DNA of 64,000 nt. It comes from Moniliella sp. 'wahieum'. Taxonomy: Eukaryota. Shown in pieces: positions 3,608 to 63,365 of this stretch. Below the pieces are notes generated by a model. The model was not told where the DNA came from, ran no database searches, and worked only from the letters and a program-made list of their open reading frames with translations. Every line of letters starts with the position of its first letter. Positions within the stretch are counted from its first letter, which is position 1. Position numbers and translations under genes: made by a program. Location of the stretch: the NCBI GenBank assembly GCA_003971905.1, contig RSEE01000005.1:806001-870000 (forward strand), written 5' to 3'.

Positions 3608-3920
3608 CTATGCATCCATATCATTGACAAAGCTTAAGGATGGGGAATAGGGAAACGCCACGCCTAAACCGACCTGTTCATCTTGCGTATGCTGCTTGGT
3701 AGCGTCAAGCCCGCTTAAAGAGCCAAGGGAATCGCCAGGAGGTCAGGACCCTGCGGTGCCCGCCGTCCGTTCCCATATACCCGAGGTAGCGCGTGTGGAC
3801 ACGGAGGGCGTGTAGACATCCGAGCGAGGAACCATTTCCATTGTGAGTCAGTACTCAGTAGTCAAATCCTTCCAACAGTGCGCAAGCATCTTGCCCGCTG
3901 TCTTGGTGCCGTAGTATCCG
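3608..3920 (-). mobile_element. 3'-end fragment of RLE-type non-LTR retrotransposon family (copy A)
   Basis: The reverse complement aligns by eye with 11650-11940 and 62335-62620 (caagacagcgggcaag...aatggaaatggttcctcgctcggatg...tgtcaatgatatggatgc). Confidence 0.8.
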
Positions 3921-6149: not shown

Positions 6150-7230
6150 ATCATTCTACCGAAGCCTCCCTCCCCCCCCGCCTCCGCGGTGGGTGATAAA
6201 CATGCCCCGGTTCAGTGGCCAGCATAGAGGCGGACTTAAGTGCTTGTGAATCGCGGTCCAAGATTTGGCCCATTGCAGAAATCTCGATCCTTGCCTCGGC
6301 CGAGGAGCCATAAAACGTGGGCGCGGGCGAGTGGTCGGATACGTACTTTCGGTAAGGTATACGACCTGTCGTTTGTAATATGGTAGCGTGCTCCGCCTGA
6401 TAGTGTACCACTACCGATGAGCACGTCCAGCGCTGTCTTCGGGTGATTTCCCCCATCGCGGTGTTCTCATGTACCTCCTTCGGTATGGGGCCTGCTGAGT
6501 TCCGAGAGTAGCGCAGCGTGTGGTCCACCTCCATCCCTGATCCTCAGATTGCTCCAGGTCCCATAACGCGGTAGTCAGGCACATTTTTGTCTTCCTCCAA
6601 TGCCTCGTACCATCCTTCTCCTCCACAATCAGCTTGTGTGGATGTGGGTGTTAGGGATGAAGCGAACGAGCTGGAAAATGGGCTCCCGCACTGCTTCATG
6701 CAACACACCAAACTTGGACTGGGTGCGGGTGCAAGCCATGAGATGTGTCAAGCACTGCACATACTGACCGTGGAGCGGCACAGCGTGGGAGCTGGAGACC
6801 AATCTCAACCTGCTTGTCGGCAGGCTGGAGGCACGGGCGGTGATGGAATGAGGAGAGCCAAAAGTGTGAGTGAGCGGGTGCTGTGCTCGACACATTGCGA
6901 CCATCGGCATCTCGTCAAGCTCTTTCTGGAGAAGATTTTGTCAGCTCTTCCTCCCATCTCTCCGGCAGCGCGGGTGTTGTTGCTTCGTAAATGCGGTCGC
7001 CGTCGGTGTGCTGCTTCCGATCGCGCAACATAAAGGGCTGCCGCATCCTCCCATGCGGAGAGGCACGCTCAAGAGATGCGAAAAGATCGTCCTTTGTACC
7101 TTTTGGGGGTCTCCACATTGCCCTTGTTGATCCGTCCGAACTCCTTGCAGAGAAGGCATTAATCTCGGCCTGCGCATGAATCTCATCCCGTACAGCAGCG
7201 TCGCCTCCACCTCCTTTGTCCACCTTCACT
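6150..7230 (-). mobile_element. Degenerate C-terminal ORF of an RLE-type (CRE/Cnl1/MoTeR-like) non-LTR retrotransposon
   Basis: Across broken frames: FWLSS...LQPADKQVEIGLQL, then C...HLMAC...LHEAVREPI (Zn-knuckle plus RHD-like motif), then PDYRVMGPGA..GSGMEVDHT (PD...D nuclease motif), then RKY. Clearly homologous to 11274-11810. Confidence 0.7.
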
Positions 7231-10928: not shown

Positions 10929-11953
10929 CTAGAAGACCACCGGGCCTACGGCCCGGTCAGCTGGGGCTTCGCCCCAGCTTGGTGCTTGGTGCTTGCTTGC
11001 CACCTTAGCCACCGTTCCCCGTCGCCACCGTCGCCATCGGTCCACCGTTCCACGCTGGAGGAATTTCATCACCCATGTGCATCCGCCTGGCTGCGGCTGA
11101 CTGGAACGTGCCGGGTGGCATGCTGACGCTAGAATTTACGTAAAGGGAAAAACGACTGCCGCAAAATTATGAAGTAGAGATTGTTGCTGGTGGCTGGGAC
11201 GGGTGGCTGCGCCACCCGGTGGCTGGCGTGAGGCTTATGTAAAAAGTGCACAGGCGTTTCCCATCGCTATATTGTTTGGTGCGTTGCATGACGCAGTGCG
11301 GGAGCCCATTCTCCAGCTCCTACGCTCCATCCCCGACACCCATGTCCGCAACGAACCTATGGTGGAGGACGAGGATGGGAGAAGACAGAGGACGCAGCGC
11401 ACCGACTACCGCGTGATGGGGCCCGGAGCACTCGGCGGATCAGGAATGGAGGTGGACCACACGCTGCGCGACACGGGATCACTGGCGCAGAGCGCGTTCC
11501 GGAGGGTGGTGCATGAGAGCACCGCAACCCCCTTGGAACGCCGGGAGAAGGAGCTGCTTCGGATGCTTGAACAAGCAGAATGCGACAAGAACGCCAAGTA
11601 CCAGGGACGCACTCAAGAGCCGTTTTTCCCCCTGGTTTTGACGACGAGGATACTACGGCACCAAGACAGCGGGCAAGTTGTTCGCGCATTGGAAGGAGTT
11701 GGCTACTAAGTCTCAGTGGAAATGGTTCCTCGCTCGGATGTCAACCACGTTCCTCCGTGTCCACACGCGCTTCCTAGGGTACGGGACCGGATGGCGTGAG
11801 CCGGAGGGTCCTGATATCCTGGCGATCCCCCTGGTCCCTTGACCCTGGTGGCGCCCCCAAGTAACCCCCGCAAGATGAACGATTAGGTTTAGACGTAGCG
11901 TTCCCCCTGTCCCAGCCTTAAGCTCTGTCAATGAAATGGACGTGCTCTAGGGA
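10929..11953 (-). mobile_element. Non-autonomous Helitron (copy 1) interrupted by a retroelement fragment
   Basis: On the minus strand: A|TCcctagag at the 5' end, and GC hairpins (ctggggcgaagccccag; ccgggccgtaggcccgg) shortly before CTAG|T at the 3' end. Termini match the uninterrupted copy at 56970-57206. Confidence 0.8.
11274..11944 (+). mobile_element. RLE-type non-LTR retrotransposon 3' fragment (endonuclease domain plus 3' UTR; copy B), nested in the Helitron
   Basis: LHDAVREPI...RNEP...RTDYRV...EVDHT...DKNAKY...FFPLVLTT, then after a frameshift WKELATKSQWKWFLARMSTTFLRVH. This is the typical motif order of a restriction-like endonuclease. Confidence 0.8.
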
Positions 11954-32909: not shown

Positions 32910-35535
32910 GGTGACCCCGGTGACCGGTGACCGGTGAGCCGACTGGTCCACTGCGCCTAGCGGCTGAAATCAGGCATCTGAGATCACCAATCACCGATCT
33001 CGATCACTGAGATGGAGATCTGACATGCTGAGACTGACGACCCTGTCCCGCCAGGTATCCAATATCTAACCGCCCATCCAAGAGAATGGCTTTCATTCCA
33101 GTGGGGCGCAGCGGGCCGCATGCCTCTAGGAGAAGCATCTTTTCTGGTTTCGTGTCGCTCTAGGGCCTAGGTTTGCCACCCGCCTCTGCTCCCCTCTGGG
33201 ATCTAGCGCCTAGCCCCAACCGTCCGCGTCACGTCACAGTGCCAGTGACCGGTCACCCCGTCACGGTGACCGATGATCGATGTCGTTGAGCGTGGGAAGT
33301 GGGACATGTAACATGTAATCGGTGACCCTCTGAGAGTCTGACGGGGTCCTGACTCAGTCTGAGTCCCTCAGGCATGAAGCTTGAAGCTTGAAGTGCCTCT
33401 GAGGCCACCGCTCCAGGCCTGAGCGCGCCTGAGCCTGACAGTCTGATGCGTGCGCCTGAGGGCCTGAGGCCGCCTGATCTGATCGATCTGAAGCTTGAAG
33501 CAAACTTAGTTGGCAAAGCTTGAAGCTCCTGAACGGGACTAGGAACTACCCGTCACGCGTCAAGGTCCCCCTCAGATCAGACCTCCAGCTCAGGCTCAGA
33601 TAACTTGGTCACATCCCCAGTATCCTTCCCTTTTTCCTACCCATGCTCGATGCCAAGGGAGTACCGATAATGGCAGAGGTGGCCACAAAAGCACGGCTGA
33701 CTGCCCAGCTGCCCACCACAGAATAGAATTGTGTTGCCTACCTACCAGCTACGTTAACGTACGTTAACCCGTTCTACGCAGTAGTACATACTGATCCGTT
33801 TACTCCTGCCGACTTTTGTCGAATATCAACGGTTCAACCGATGGAGGATCTGCCAGCACCGAACTACACCCGATTTTGAAGCCTCGAGCTTGAAGCTTGA
33901 AAAGCCAGTTAAACGTAACCCTTAACGTGACACGCTGAACGTTAAACGTTAATTAATGAGGCCTAAGGCCTATTAAGGCGTAGGCCTAAGCTGATGTGGA
34001 TGTTAAAAAACGTTAATGCTTAGAAGGCCACACCGTTCCACCACCGTTCCGTCTTCATCGCCACCTTCATTAGCCCCCATCCCACCGTCGCCACCGTAGC
34101 CACCGTTGCCCCGTGCACCACTGTTAGGATTGGATTTAGCTTAAGGTTTATCCATCATCACCGTGGAGCGTCCTGGCAGCGCCGGCGGCGCCGCTGTGCA
34201 CGTGCTATTGCAAACGACCTCCCTGTCTTATAGATGGCGAACACATTGTTTGGGCCCTGGAAAGAATTGACCACTGAGTCTCAATATTCTCAATGGAGAC
34301 GGTTCAACTTGAACGTTCACCGGTCACCGTTCAGATGTCTGCCACGTTCATTCGTATCCACGCGCGCTATACTCTCAGATCTCAGGTATGAAAATGGATG
34401 GCGGGTGTCAGAGGGTCCTGTTCGATGATATACTGGTCCTGGGTTCCTAAACGGATTTGGCGCCAACAAGCGACACGGGATGAACAAGACGCAGTGTTTC
34501 TTTGTCCAAGCCTTACATGGACGCAGTGTTTCTTTGTCCAAGCCTTACAGTTACAACTCAAGAGCCTAAGCTCTACTGTCAATGATATGGCTGCGCCTGG
34601 CAGGAACCCTCTGAAAACAAAGCAATTCTATGAAATACACCGATTTGCTTAGCGCTTAATGCTGACATGTTGGTAGGCAGAGGTTTTATTACGGCCCGTT
34701 GAGACCAACTTCGCTCCGCTTTTTAGCTTCATCGCCACCACAATGCCCACCGCCGTCGCCCTGAAACACGTATGTGGCGATGCAGCGCTAAGCTGAGGTC
34801 TGAGGCTGGCTCAACGTAGGTTCATGCATGCATGATCAGTGCTAGTCCACTACGTGCCCCATGGGTTTCGTACGAGTCTCTTGCCCAGGCGGTCACTGAA
34901 TATCAGCCACGGCCTGCCACGGCGCGTCCTGGCTCACCGTGACGCGTGACGCATAATGGATATGCAACCGGTGATTGGTAAACGGGAGCCGGGGTACCCT
35001 GTACCCAGAAACCAGAAACCTTTGACGAATAGGAGAAGCGGAACTTACCCCCAAACCCCCGCCAGCCATCCCGCCCCGCTGTTCTTTGTTGGACGTTGGA
35101 CCTATTAGCTGTCCCGCTTAGCGCTTAGCCTGACAGCGACGCGCGCCCTGTGTCTTTGTTCAACGTTCAACGTGTTCAACTGACGTGTCGATCTGTTTGA
35201 GGAGATGGGGTCGGTCAGCGCTCAGCCCTGAGCGCTGACTCAGCCCTCCAACCGGGCACACGTCGTTTTGACGTGTTGAAGCTGCGGATGCCGAACATTG
35301 GGCACATATTCAGCTCGCAGACGGTTGTTTTCCCAGACGGTTGTCTAGCGGTGGACACATTGGTCGGCCGGGGGACTGTCGAATACATTGTATCTGAAAC
35401 ACGCTCTCCGTCTTCACGTGCATCACGTGTGACGGTGACAAGTCACATGTCACTGTCACGGTGGACGCGTAACGCGTAACGCGTGATGCCCAGAGGAGGT
35501 GGGTTACTACTAGTTACTGGTTACTAGTTACTCCG
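32910..35535. repeat. Second dense field of TNA/palindrome micro-arrays, upstream of the cyclin
   Basis: (TGAccgg)n at 32921-32937, (TGAagct)n near 33375 and 33890, taaggcctaa near 33965, (TAAcgcg)n near 35465, ttactagtta near 35521. Confidence 0.85.
34230..34592 (+). mobile_element. RLE retrotransposon 3' fragment (copy C) carrying palindromic insertions
   Basis: LFGPWKELTTESQ aligns with LFAHWKELATKSQ of copy B. It ends in ctgtcaatgatatgg like the other copies. Confidence 0.72.
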
Positions 35536-38013
35536 GTTTCTCGTCCCGGCACTGCCCCGACCCCACCGTCACTCCCTGCTTGGTGTGCCAGTGTGCCGTG
35601 CACGCAAACTCTCCGTTTGGTGGCAACGGGATGCTTCAGGTGTTGTCTGGCGCTGTTCGCTACAGGGTTATATGCTTCCAGCTGCTCTGCCTGCTATACC
35701 TTGCTATCCACCGCTGATGCATCACATGCATCACATCCCACATTCTACTTGGCACGGTGCCAAGAGCGTGTAACGTGTGTTTACCACAGAAGCCTCTGTC
35801 GGCCTATACCAGCCGGCGCTTCCTGTACCTCGTTCAACATTCACATGTTCACAGTTCCATACGAGAAGATAGACTTCAAGGCCGTAATGTGTTCGTCTCT
35901 CGCGAGTATGAAAACTTTGGCTTCTTTTTCTTGAGAGCTCATTCCATTGCAAAAGGGCCTACTAACACCTCTCGGCTCTGTCGAAGGAGGACCTTCATTT
36001 GCCCCCCCGCGTAAGGCTGAGAGGTGGCGCATGGCCACTAAGCGGGACGTCTACCGTCGCACACAGTCCGGACGTGCCTGGTCCTGCAATTTTGCCAAAA
36101 TCTTACCTGATGAGCGTGCTGAGCGCGGCATCCCTTCTCTCGTAATATATCGCTAGTGTTTAACGAGCCTTGTCTCGTGCCTGGCTCGCAGCGACATCAT
36201 CAGCCCTACTGGCCGTGGCATTTTATGATCAAGGGTCCTGGTTGGTAGTCTCTCTTGAGGCCAAGGTGTTGGTTCTGATGTTTTCTCACTTCGCTTTCCA
36301 TTTTGTTCTTTTGCGGGCAGACCCCGTGACGCCTGGCATGTAGATGTCCCTGTAAGCGTAACTGGCTGGCCAAGAGACCACCCTAATCACCATCATTAGT
36401 GCGATGGTGTCACCATCAAGAGGCATTATCAAAGCTCCAAGTCTCATTGTAAAAGCCCCCACCTGATGAGGAAATGTGAGGATCGAGCGTGCATCCCAAA
36501 GGGAACATATATAAAGTGTAAAAGGGATTTGAGCGACTCCCTTCGTTCGTCGTTCGCTTCGGCAGGTGGGTAGACAACTCAAGCCCCACTTACGCACACT
36601 GCATGGTCTTCCTTCTCTCTCCTTCCTGCCACGGATGACATCGATGGACAAATGGATGCTACCTCACCAGCAAGCATGTCATTTGCCATTTTTGAAAAAT
36701 ATCCGCACTGGCTGAGATGGTTCTCGCTCGATGATCATGGTTGGTCGCTCCAGCAGGTTCTCAGAGCTAGGCTCATCATTTTCACGCCCCATTTCACGGC
36801 AACTGATGATTCCAAGGCGACTGGAGGGAAAGACTGTAGTCAGTGAATGCGGATTATGGTTCAAGACGTACTGCCGACGAAGGCAACTATAATGGACCGA
36901 AAACCCAATGTGAGTGTTTCTGTCACGGTCTCTCTTATTAGTAAACGTTTGTTGAGGGAGCGAGAGCCTCCCTGGTTGGTGGGCTGTTCTGCCGCTGTCC
37001 TCACTATAGGCATCTCCGTGAGGGTCTCTGCCACGCCCTGCCATCATCGCCACCAACTTAGGGAACGTCACAAAATAATGTCTCCCCGTGATATTACAGT
37101 GGTCTCACGGCCACATGATGCACACACTTTCAATCCCCTGTGGGACGACGTCTCGTGGCCTTGATTGCTTATTGAACGGTGCGTTTTCCCGCGTTGCGGT
37201 CGTGTGGGTGTTCGAGAAAGAGTCATCATCGTCATCAGCGACCTATACACTCTTCCGCGGGATCCGGCCGGCAGGGATGACAGCGACGGGCGCCTGTTTT
37301 TCAACAAGATCCATGGTGGCTGGCTGGGCAATGGAAGACGAGTTGCTAGCGCAACGGCTTTGAACATGTGGCGCCAGGGGCAGCGGTTCAAACATTCAAC
37401 TTCCATACAGGGCACATGGCACAGCGCGTTTGCACGTTCAACGTTCAACTTGAACGTTCAATATTCAAGCTCAGCCGCGGCTTGGCACGGCAGGCACTGC
37501 TCGGCAGAGGGATGGAGTTGTGGCAGTTGTGGCCCCGGGGCCGAGGGAAGCCAGCGAAGCATACGCACTGGCGCCCTGCACAGACGCACCGCGTGCTGAG
37601 TACCTGGGCTGGCGCCCCGCGCAATCCAAACACCCGACACTGCCCCCGGGCGGCGGAGCACACTCCAAGCAGCGCTGGCTGGTTCCTTGCAGCCGCGCGC
37701 TGGAGCGCTGCATGATGCATGACTGCATGACACTGGCCACAGGCGGCGGCATAACTTGGCGACGTGTGACATGTGGCTGCCAGGACCAGTGACAGCGGCC
37801 GATGAGGTGAGCTCACCAGTGATCCCCTGCGCGGAGGCCGATCGGGCATAAAAACTTTTAGTGCTCCGCCGGAGCAAGCGCAGCCGACGCAGCACAGACA
37901 CACCACGACACCCCAGGACAACCCGAGTGCTTGCTTCTCGGCCACCGCCACCGCCACCGCCGCCGCCGCCGCCACCCCCCCTCGCTGCCTCCGCCACATT
38001 CTGCCCGGGCAGC

Positions 38014-56969: not shown

Positions 56970-57206
56970 CGAGGAGGACCACCGGGCCTACGGCCCAGTC
57001 GGCTGGGGCTTCGCCCCAGCTTGGTGCTGCGTCGCCACCTTAGCCACCGTAGCCACCGTTCCACCGGCCACCGTTCCACGCTGGAAAGACGAAATAATAT
57101 CACCGATTGTTGCTGGTGGCTGGGACGGGTGGCTGCGCCACCCGGTGGCTGACGTGAGGCTTATGTAAAAAGTGCACAGGCGTTTCCCAGCTATATTCTC
57201 TAGGGA
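56970..57206 (-). mobile_element. Non-autonomous Helitron (copy 2, uninterrupted, ~237 bp)
   Basis: A|TCcctagagaatatag 5' end, twin GC hairpins, and a CTCG|T 3' end. Near-identical blocks to 10929-11273. Confidence 0.78.
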
Positions 57207-61194: not shown

Positions 61195-63365
61195 ACGGTA
61201 GTTTCGGGCTTAGGCTGGTTGGTGTGTCCGAGCGGAGCTAGGACGAGGAGAGGCCTTTGGTGGGGCGGCTGCACGTGTGGCAAGGCTGCGTCTGCACCGG
61301 CTTGGGCCGTAGTACGTGTCTGAAGCCCTCCGGGACTTAGGGACGGGAGGAGGCAGCGGCGGACAAACACTGCCTTAACTGGGACTGGGAATCGCCGCGA
61401 CCGAAGGAGGGCTCGCGCGATTGGACTGACGAAGGGCTGGAGGACGAGGTCGGAGGAGATGTCGGACGCTAACAAAGGAGCTGCCTGTACTGGGTCAATT
61501 GGCTGGAAACGGGCAGGAGTCGGACAGGATAGGCGGGAAGGGACGAAGGTGGAGACGAGAGATGACGAGAGATGACGAGAATGGAAGGTGGGGGAAAAGA
61601 TCCCCATCAACCAGGGGTACAGGCAGGATCAAAAGGGAAACGGATACAAGAGGGGGTGTAGAAAGGAAGACATGTCAAAAGCGGGGTTGGTCGCCACAGG
61701 CGCGACCGAGAAAGGAAATGGAAACGGGGACGGGACGGCAGATGCCGCCACGGCACTGGAAGCTCGGTGGCCCTATTTAGGCCGGCCGACTTGGACTTGG
61801 GCGGGGGGCGACTATTGTCGCGCGGAGCATGGCCCTTCGGCCACGATACTTAATTTAGCCAACCATCATCACATTTGATTGGCCTGCGGTGCACGCTCTA
61901 CTTGGCATGTGCGGAGCAGGCGGGCCTTAGCTTGGGTCGGACCATCTCGTGTCCGCCGCAGCCCGTGACAGGTGTCTACCTCCGGGGATGTTGTTGTAAA
62001 ACGTGAGGGATGATAATTTTGGCCTAGAAGTACAGAGAGTACTAGGCTGCTATACTGGAGAACACACACCAGCACAGATAATTATAAGACCACACAATCT
62101 GTTCTGTTGTGTTGGGTTAGGCCATATTGCGAGACAGGGGGCGAGAGCCCCATTTCCTTTTCCCACCTCTCGCCCTCGCCATTGGAGTGTAGTATCCTGT
62201 CTCTGACCCATGACCGCGCTGCTGCGCCTTCTCGTTAACCGCGTGACCGCGTGGAACCTCGTTCAGGTTCGACTATGATCGGTGGACATCCCAAAACGGG
62301 TACTTCCTTCCTTGATGAGCATACAACAGTATAAAAAGGACAGCGGGCAAGATGCTTACGCACTGGAAGGATTTGACTACTGAATCTCAATGGAAATGGT
62401 TCCTCACTCGGATGTTTACCACGTTCATCCGTGTCCACACGCGCTACCTCGGGTATGGGAATGGATGGCGGGCACCAGAGGGTCATGGTATCCTATAGCG
62501 ATTCCCCTGCGGTTCCTTAACAGGGGTGGCGCTACCAAGCAACACGCAAGATGAACGGGTCGGTTTAGGAGTAGCGTTTTCCCGCCCCAGCCTTAAGGTC
62601 TGTCAATGATATGTGGATGCAGAATAAAAGCACAGACACACAACAAGATCGATGTCCAGGGTACCCTGATCTTCTATTACCATATGGCAGGACCCACCAA
62701 AAAGTGTGCAACCCTACTGCTCCCCGACCTGCACGTGACGGGGGGGCTGGCTGCGCCAACTATCGGGCATATGACAGAGTCGCGTCGACGCGTCCCTCCA
62801 CTCCCTTAAAATGCCCCCTACCCGTGCTCACTGGGGGTGCCCCCATTGCCGCACCAACGACCACACTCGCGCACAGTGTTCCTTCAATCCACGCCGAGAG
62901 TTGTGCCGCCCTGCCGTCGCCATGGCCACAAGGCTGCCGACTGCGGTAGTTTCGGGTTTGGGCTATTTGATGGATCCGAGCCGAGGAGAAGCCGGCGTGA
63001 AGCCGAGGCGGCCGCACGCGCGGAAAGGCTGTGTATGCGCCGGCTTGGGGGTAGTAACGTGTCTGAAGCCTCCGGAGCTTAGGGACGGGTAGATGCTGTG
63101 GAGGACAAAGACTGCCAGGGCTGAAGCTGGGCGGGGGCGGCTGTGGACGTAGCTGTGAAAGGAACCCACGCGATACGCTGAGGAAGGCTCGCGTGACTGG
63201 GCGGATGGAAAGCTGGAGGACGAGGTTGGATGATGAAGATGAGGCAGCTAAGTGGAGACGAGAGGTTGCCTGCATTACTCAATCAGTTGGCCGGAAACCG
63301 TCAGGAGTTGGACATGAAAGGTGGGAAAGGACGAGAATGGAAGGTGGGATAAAGGATCCCCACTG
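61195..63365 (+). repeat. Diverged ~400-bp direct repeat pair (61195-61610 and 62943-63365)
   Basis: Shared blocks in the same order: cggtagtttcggg, cgtgtctgaagcc...cttagggacggg, gctggaggacgaggt, gacgagaatggaaggtggg..aa.gatcccca. Confidence 0.75.
62335..62645 (+). mobile_element. RLE retrotransposon 3' fragment (copy D)
   Basis: gacagcgggcaagatgct...aatggaaatggttcctcactcggatg...ccttaaggtctgtcaatgatatg, then aataaaa and a CA-rich stretch. Confidence 0.78.

Follow-up and report, generated by a model that had tools for sequence, protein, structure and literature searches.

Transposons of the hAT type duplicate 8 base pairs (bp) of target DNA, with the pattern nTnnnnAn, and in V(D)J recombination the hairpins made by RAG are opened by Artemis to give coding joints with palindromic (P) nucleotides. 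Excision footprints of the hAT element Ac/Ds have been described in plants, yeast and Candida albicans; they show a retained duplication, short deletions and P nucleotides, and are discussed in terms of hairpin resolution and microhomology, with 28 footprint types among 128 excisions in C. albicans (PMC5873905, sections on footprints). Two families with a 7-bp target duplication are reported in the Basidiomycota, hAT7 in the Pucciniales (rusts) and Kyakuja in the Agaricomycotina (mushrooms) (PMC12730594, passages on these families), and for small 10-bp repeats in Ustilago maydis an origin as footprints of transposons has been suggested (PMC4081816, passage on repeats). Here we describe what may be excision footprints of another kind, in a stretch of 64,000 nucleotides (nt) from Moniliella sp. 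'wahieum' (assembly GCA_003971905.1, contig RSEE01000005.1, positions 806,001 to 870,000, forward strand). This whole stretch is called the window, and all coordinates refer to it. The candidate footprints are short insertions in copies of a dispersed repeat, centred on the triplet TNA and joined by palindromes that copy the flanking dinucleotides. No description of such a TNA-centred, 7-bp palindromic footprint grammar was found in the literature searched.

Self-comparison of the window finds the repeat, about 300 bp long, as four copies, A to D. The copies encode a shared peptide on translation, and they match the 3' end of the open reading frame (ORF) of a protein of 279 amino acids (aa), P0001.

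Copy A, 3611-3919, minus strand: without any of the three insertions of copy C (self-comparison, alignment and tblastn).
Copy B, 11648-11940 for the repeat part and 11275-11940 with the part matching P0001, plus strand: the longest copy, without all insertions.
Copy C, about 34237-34590, plus strand: the decayed 3' end of a P0001-like ORF with some 170 nt downstream; it terminates in TGTCAATGATATGG.
Copy D, 62339-62621, plus strand: without all insertions, the frame being open across all sites.

A preliminary description of this DNA had pointed to a 17-nt form in copies B and D that is 20 nt longer in copy C, within the 37-nt stretch 34301-34337, and to two further units said to be absent from the other copies, TC-TCA-GATC-TCA at 34373-34384 and TCA-ATAT-TC-TCA at 34281-34292. 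All of these strings are where they were placed, and the 17-nt form is present in copy A as well. It occurs exactly three times in the window against 0.04 expected (A, 3817-3833, minus strand; B, 11724-11740; D, 62398-62414). A MAFFT alignment of the four copies gives blocks of 9, 20 and 10 nt specific to copy C, among them the two further units, and one block of 7 nt specific to copy A. Most of this extra sequence obeys one rule, a 7-bp duplication centred on T-N-A whose joint carries, in reverse complement, the 2 nt next to it. If the original site is written xy-TNA-cd, a left event turns xy-TNA into xy-TNA-y'x'-xy-TNA, and a right event turns TNA-cd into TNA-cd-d'c'-TNA-cd. The four insertions are listed here.

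34279-34294, plus strand: insertion of the 9-nt class in copy C; heptamer TCTCAAT, filler AT (the reverse complement of the last two bases of the heptamer), then TCTCAAT again; left-flank type.
34307-34326 (one of several equivalent placements), plus strand: 20-nt insertion in copy C, reading GT TCA AC, T TGA AC, GT TCA CC, GG TCA CC.
34369-34378 (BLAST placement), plus strand: 10-nt insertion in copy C; one left-type 7-nt unit, TC TCA GA TC TCA (34373-34384), and 3 nt outside the rule.
3846-3852, plus strand: 7-nt insertion specific to copy A, at TCA, giving AG TCA GTAC TCA GT; right-type, and a gap against both B and D.

The spacers are as the preliminary description had claimed, ACGT being the reverse complement of GT followed by GT, and CCGG being CC followed by its reverse complement. 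It had also been predicted that the insertions would sit at TNA, in units of 7 or 9 nt, with spacers templated by the flanking dinucleotides, and this holds for 30 of the 39 nt specific to copy C: 7 + 7 in the 20-nt block, 7 in the 10-nt block and all 9 in the 9-nt block, which is a net gain of 9 nt over A, B and D. The 20-nt block resolves into three units: two of 7 nt, one of the left and one of the right type, and one of 6 nt whose centre is flipped (TGA). In a reconstruction by script, in which every 20-nt deletion of 34296-34342 was tried as the ancestral form, a single shorter form regenerates the stretch by one left and one right event at its one TCA, with 14 of the 20 nt exact, and the only residue outside the rule is the 6-nt unit, TTGAAC or a rotation of it. 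At two of the three sites in copy C, a substitution private to that copy (TCC to TCA; TCG to TCA) made the TNA that was later hit.

The direction of change can be read from the coding frame. By tblastn, P0001 and copies B and D read in one uninterrupted frame across all four insertion sites, and the counter-case named in the preliminary description, a family consensus that already contains the units, fails on this account. The gaps in the alignment of copy C with P0001 fall exactly at the three sites of copy C, and the 20-nt and 10-nt blocks shift its frame. Copy A likewise changes frame at its 7-nt insertion, which brings a stop and a frameshift into its reading frame. The state without the scar is thus the ancestral one at all four sites. 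Because a coding ancestor cannot have held frame-shifting blocks, the frames show for this locus that the extra units of copy C are insertions gained after the death of that copy, and not losses elsewhere. This argument is made from the open frames and not from the codon-position count, as B and D differ at 7, 7 and 13 sites in codon positions 1, 2 and 3, a contrast too slight to demonstrate constraint. Between other repeat pairs of the window, the indels, of 3-31 nt, fall outside the rule, among them two of 7 nt in a repeat of the CCACCGT type, so the before-and-after evidence in the window comes from the P0001-like family alone.

The same units are found far outside the repeat. The counts below are for the whole window, and expectations come from order-3 Markov simulations, 200 of them for the TNA-N4-TNA palindrome counts and the flank-templated counts.

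TNA, any 4 nt, same TNA: 155 observed, 33 simulated.
TNA, palindromic 4-nt spacer, same TNA: 83 observed, 2.1-2.4 simulated (maximum 7).
Left flank-templated form: 49 observed, 0.11 simulated.
Right flank-templated form: 46 observed, 0.16 simulated.
Heptamer, 2 nt, same heptamer, TNA-centred: 12 observed, 0.14 simulated.
Exact heptamer duplication, TNA-centred: 27 observed, 0.11 simulated.
Flipped centre, TNA-pal4-TN'A: 11 observed, 2.6 simulated.
Odd 6-nt form, same centre: 19 observed, about 8 simulated.
Odd 6-nt form, flipped centre: 20 observed, about 7-8 simulated.

Among the 14 triplet classes tabulated, each with at least one link, strong enrichment is seen for TNA only, the next class being TNG with 12 links against 4.2. 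The 83 same-centre links divide into 26 of the left type only, 23 of the right type only, 23 of both and 11 of neither. The near equality of left and right (26 versus 23) is as expected of a symmetric, two-ended break. Half of the spacer mirrors the adjacent outer dinucleotide in 72 of these 83 links, where about 12% would be expected by chance, and the 2-nt filler mirrors the adjoining flank dinucleotide in 10 of the 12 cases in which two heptamers are separated by 2 nt. Junction nucleotides that are the reverse complement of the adjoining flank are what P nucleotides look like. Two copies of a target of fixed length at an empty site are found in the 12 heptamer pairs with 2 nt between them, that at 34279-34294 included, and in the 27 without, against about 0.1-0.2 simulated. 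The odd-centred 6-nt forms (TNA-s1 s2 s1'-TNA or TN'A), enriched about 2.5-fold, are a minor class beside the 7-nt lattice.

The links are strongly clustered. Of the 104 TNA-palindrome-TNA links, 67 lie between 28 and 36 kilobases (kb), and 36 of these between 28 and 30 kb, where G+C drops to 0.49. The 2-kb bins around copies C, A, B and D hold 14, 5, 0 and 0 links, respectively, so that the hits per copy track the local density.

One unit of copy C departs from the 7-nt register. The preliminary description had noted a flipped triplet in the longer form of copy C; the TGA is there, but the unit that carries it is 6 nt long, not 7. The 17-mer holding this unit recurs exactly at 37444-37460 on the plus strand, with different flanks and in an unrelated heptamer array (0 expected in shuffles), the array at 37434-37468 reading GT TCA AC GT TCA AC T TGA AC GT TCA AT AT TCA. 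As an identical 17-mer recurs in an unrelated array, the 6-nt flipped unit does not look like noise; it is probably a second outcome of a stereotyped kind, and a hairpin with its tip offset by one base would, by our reckoning, give such a unit.

From these observations we infer a transposon, hairpins and a joining pathway. With moderate confidence, we regard the extra units in copies C and A as scars from the repeated insertion and excision of a hairpin-forming, cut-and-paste transposon with a 7-bp, TNA-centred target duplication. On insertion, the element would duplicate 7 bp centred on T-N-A (xy-TNA-cd), and on excision it would leave both flanks as DNA hairpins. A host nuclease would open a hairpin about 2 nt from its tip, giving a 4-nt self-complementary overhang. 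If end joining then kept one overhang and removed 2 nt from the other flank, the product would be either xy-TNA-y'x'xy-TNA-cd or xy-TNA-cdd'c'-TNA-cd, with 7 nt gained on balance. Should the other flank escape trimming, the net gain would be 9 nt. Keeping one overhang and trimming the other flank would yield just the two products that dominate, and would account for their being equally common. That the primary event duplicates 7 bp centred on TNA, in the manner of a target-site duplication, follows from the 9-nt class, as this keeps two complete heptamers; its 2-nt mirror filler is what would be expected of a flank hairpin opened 2 nt from the tip. Each scar would itself be a new and more palindromic TNA heptamer, open to another hit, and in this way arrays would grow. 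The clustering of the links is consistent with local re-insertion of a cut-and-paste element.

The preliminary description had proposed an opened hairpin whose overhang is rejoined through T-n-A microhomology. Templating of the spacers by the flanks is borne out, but the 9-nt class points to a 7-bp duplication with 2 nt of the P type and not to a break sealed by microhomology alone. The microhomology may still have a part in explaining the 7-bp register and the occasional flip of the centre. The reverse complement of xy-TNA is TN'A-y'x', and a longer mirror tail could pair with the other flank's copy except at the middle base; such pairing would hold the 7-bp register and would occasionally flip the middle base.

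Three other derivations of the units were considered and dropped. A 3-bp duplication of TNA with P nucleotides from the triplet itself predicts adjacent TNA-TN'A; direct TNA-TNA is not enriched (65 versus 51.7, the flipped adjacent form not being counted). A hairpin with TNA as its loop predicts a 5-nt lattice, which is not enriched either (4 versus 2.0). Leftover bases from the ends of a transposon are ruled out, as the spacer varies with the flank.

How does this compare with the described systems? The palindromic spacer has the size known from V(D)J joints, where opening of the hairpin about 2 nt away from the tip leaves a self-complementary overhang of 4 nt. V(D)J recombination differs in having no target-site duplication and in being confined to vertebrate lymphocytes. 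The duplication in the window is of 7 bp, its third and fifth bases being T and A (nnTnAnn), unlike the 8 bp of hAT elements. Neither this duplication nor the main class of palindromes has the marks of a hAT footprint, which are 8 duplicated bp and palindromes centred on the complement of the element-adjacent base, and no hAT transposase was seen in the window ORFs scanned by Pfam. As in Ac/Ds, a duplicated target is left, one flank has short deletions and the joint has palindromic nucleotides templated by the other flank; in the sections on footprints, the Ac/Ds products are explained by flank hairpins opened off-centre and by end joining, sometimes via microhomology (PMC5873905). The hAT7 and Kyakuja families share the 7-bp duplication and are cut-and-paste families of basidiomycetes, but the passages on them describe no TNA-centred target and no footprints, and the paper makes no mention of the Ustilaginomycotina (PMC12730594). 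No homologue of either was found in the window. The repeats of U. maydis are similar in being small, intergenic and from a smut fungus, and in having been interpreted as remains of earlier transposon activity in a genome where few elements are left. They are of 10 bp, not 7, and the passage on them allows a likening by description only and not by sequence rule (PMC4081816).

Several points weigh against a transposon. The first is the missing agent. A search of the 64-kb window for elements that have inverted ends and a 7-bp duplication centred on TNA found none, the five matches among 1540 candidate pairs all being array-against-array artefacts. The 139 ORFs of 120 aa or more, and 76 shorter ones from 6.4-11.5, 33.5-34.2 and 60.9-62.2 kb, likewise gave no transposase domain. 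About 100 links in 64 kb would require a very active element, and none is visible in the window. Secondly, the products vary far less than Ac/Ds footprints do in experiments: two mirror-image forms dominate here, whereas the footprints recovered experimentally are heterogeneous (PMC5873905, sections on footprints). Thirdly, the main class here is of 4-bp palindromes with an even centre, whereas in hAT footprints the palindrome is odd, being centred on the complement of the element-adjacent base (same source, same sections). Finally, the 6-nt flipped unit and 3 nt of the 10-nt block are not products of the simple rule. With all of this counted, excision footprints are the best available reading and one that we hold to be somewhat probable, but it is a reading without its agent in the window.

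Of the alternatives, the one that fares best dispenses with mobility. A nuclease or repair pathway would make 7-nt staggered breaks at TNA, which would be sealed by fill-in duplication with a short mirror filler; a transposase that has been domesticated could be responsible, or some other hairpin-forming enzyme at work in open chromatin between genes. The lack of any transposon or transposase in the window speaks for such a pathway, as do the extreme uniformity of the products and the clustering of the scars in two large gene-poor stretches. Against it, we know of no described enzyme that makes TNA-centred staggered breaks in this way. Moreover, a duplication of fixed length together with flank palindromes is the textbook signature of insertion and excision (PMC5873905, sections on footprints). 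We consider this pathway unlikely, if worth keeping in mind.

A second possibility is that replication slippage duplicates heptamers, and that template switching in the resulting quasi-palindrome corrects the joint to a perfect 4-bp palindrome. The neighbouring units of copy C, read as a period-7 array, do differ by one base, Tandem Repeats Finder reports 13 period-7 arrays among its 21 rows for 33.0-37.6 kb, and there are 27 exact tandem heptamer duplications centred on TNA. Slippage gives no reason for a TNA centre, however, when only TNA is strongly enriched among the tabulated classes. The supposed intermediate, an exact heptamer duplication with non-palindromic outer dinucleotides, is rare, accounting for only 4 of those 27. 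The 9-nt class with its flank-mirrored filler is not a product of slippage, and 69 of the 84 arrays contain only two TNA triplets. We judge this explanation to be improbable.

Selection of the arrays as protein-binding or regulatory sites, their regularity arising from function and not from a mutational process, is very improbable: the intergenic position of the arrays speaks for it, but the units arise within a dead, frame-broken copy of a repeat, and a spacer set by chance flanking bases leaves no common motif beyond TNA. Least credible of all is that the family ancestor carried the units and that A, B and D later lost them, since, although four copies without a root leave each single-copy state formally ambiguous, the one open frame of P0001, B and D runs across all sites, which the 20-nt and 10-nt blocks would shift, three precise and independent losses would be required, and such units occur about 100 times in unique sequence.

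The repeat that hosts the scars deserves a description of its own. A profile built from the peptides of copies B and D finds P0001 (E 1e-28) as the sole real relative among 1.84 billion representative proteins; the second match, with E 4e-4, is a low-complexity repeat protein. Searches of the window with P0001 by tblastn match residues 87-278 in copy B (in two frames, with 81% and 69% identity), 221-273 in copy D, 216-277 in copy A (in two frames) and 223-270 in copy C, where the match spans 34237-34419. Pairwise identity among A, B and D is 78-81%, and that of C with D about 71%. No further copies were found by word searches of near length or of longer length, nor in two metagenome scans, one with a protein query and one with a degenerate DNA pattern.

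Judged from these alignments, the repeat family is the 3' end of a dispersed ORF, its copies being truncated at differing points at the 5' end and sharing one 3' end. In terms of P0001, B begins at residue 87, A at 216, D at 221 and C at 223, and all four end near TGTCAATGA(T/A)ATGG. Copies with 5' truncations and a common 3' end are a pattern typical of retroelements without long terminal repeats (non-LTR retroelements), which makes the term 'retroelement', used in the preliminary description, a plausible one. It goes unsupported by the protein domains: Pfam has no family for P0001 or for the repeat copies, and no reverse transcriptase domain was found in the same 139 and 76 ORFs of the window. 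The only retroelement lead, a weak one, is a zf-RVT neighbour in the protein atlas at a score of 0.90. A non-LTR retroelement is thus a plausible but unproven identity for the repeat.

Further repeated sequence lies nearby. More decayed pieces of the P0001-like ORF are at 6430-6931 on the minus strand (residues 9-182) and at 11275-11649 on the plus strand (residues 87-215), and differ from one another by indels of 4 and 8 nt, which fall outside the TNA rule. The 3' part of copy C has a 32-bp tandem duplication at 34488-34549 (1.9 copies, 100% matches) that is not in A, B or D; it is an ordinary duplication and not a product of the rule. A second dispersed repeat, at 10932-11273 and 56974-57197, contains 7-9-nt repeats of the CCACCGT type, and a 95-bp piece of it is 96.8% identical between the two copies. 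A stretch similar to it, at 34020-34130, is directly upstream of copy C, and both repeats may belong to one larger element. Copy D is bracketed by a pair of direct repeats, 61196-61553 and 62944-63341, which are about 66% identical.

The surroundings are ordinary fungal nuclear DNA. The genes identified by Pfam in the window include a sugar transporter, TBP, a cyclin, KRE6/SKN1, an alcohol dehydrogenase and other housekeeping genes. The best named relatives of the KRE6 fragment are in Tilletiaria, Testicularia, Ustilago and Pseudozyma, at 64-66% identity, which places the fungus within the Ustilaginomycotina or near to them.

What the locus offers is a clean before-and-after record, the units being absent from three copies and from one related protein, with five or six events stacked in one copy. 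It turns a statistical TNA-palindrome-TNA lattice into polarised mutational events with a known substrate and a known product. Should there be no element, an unknown DNA-cutting activity is indicated. If the units are transposon scars, they record the way in which DNA hairpins appear to be handled in this fungus, opened about 2 nt from the tip and joined with one overhang kept, and they provide a signature by which the element may be located. They would also mean that a single transposon family is able to remodel intergenic DNA and give rise to heptamer repeats, yet leave hardly any copies of itself. A wider proposal, which we put forward only tentatively, is that insertions into non-coding DNA in this fungal lineage come mainly from a very active, undescribed hairpin-forming agent with a 7-bp, TNA-centred target, be it a transposon family or a transposase that has been domesticated; the agent would write self-propagating arrays of palindromic heptamers. 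This would be a new, rule-based route for the birth of short tandem repeats.

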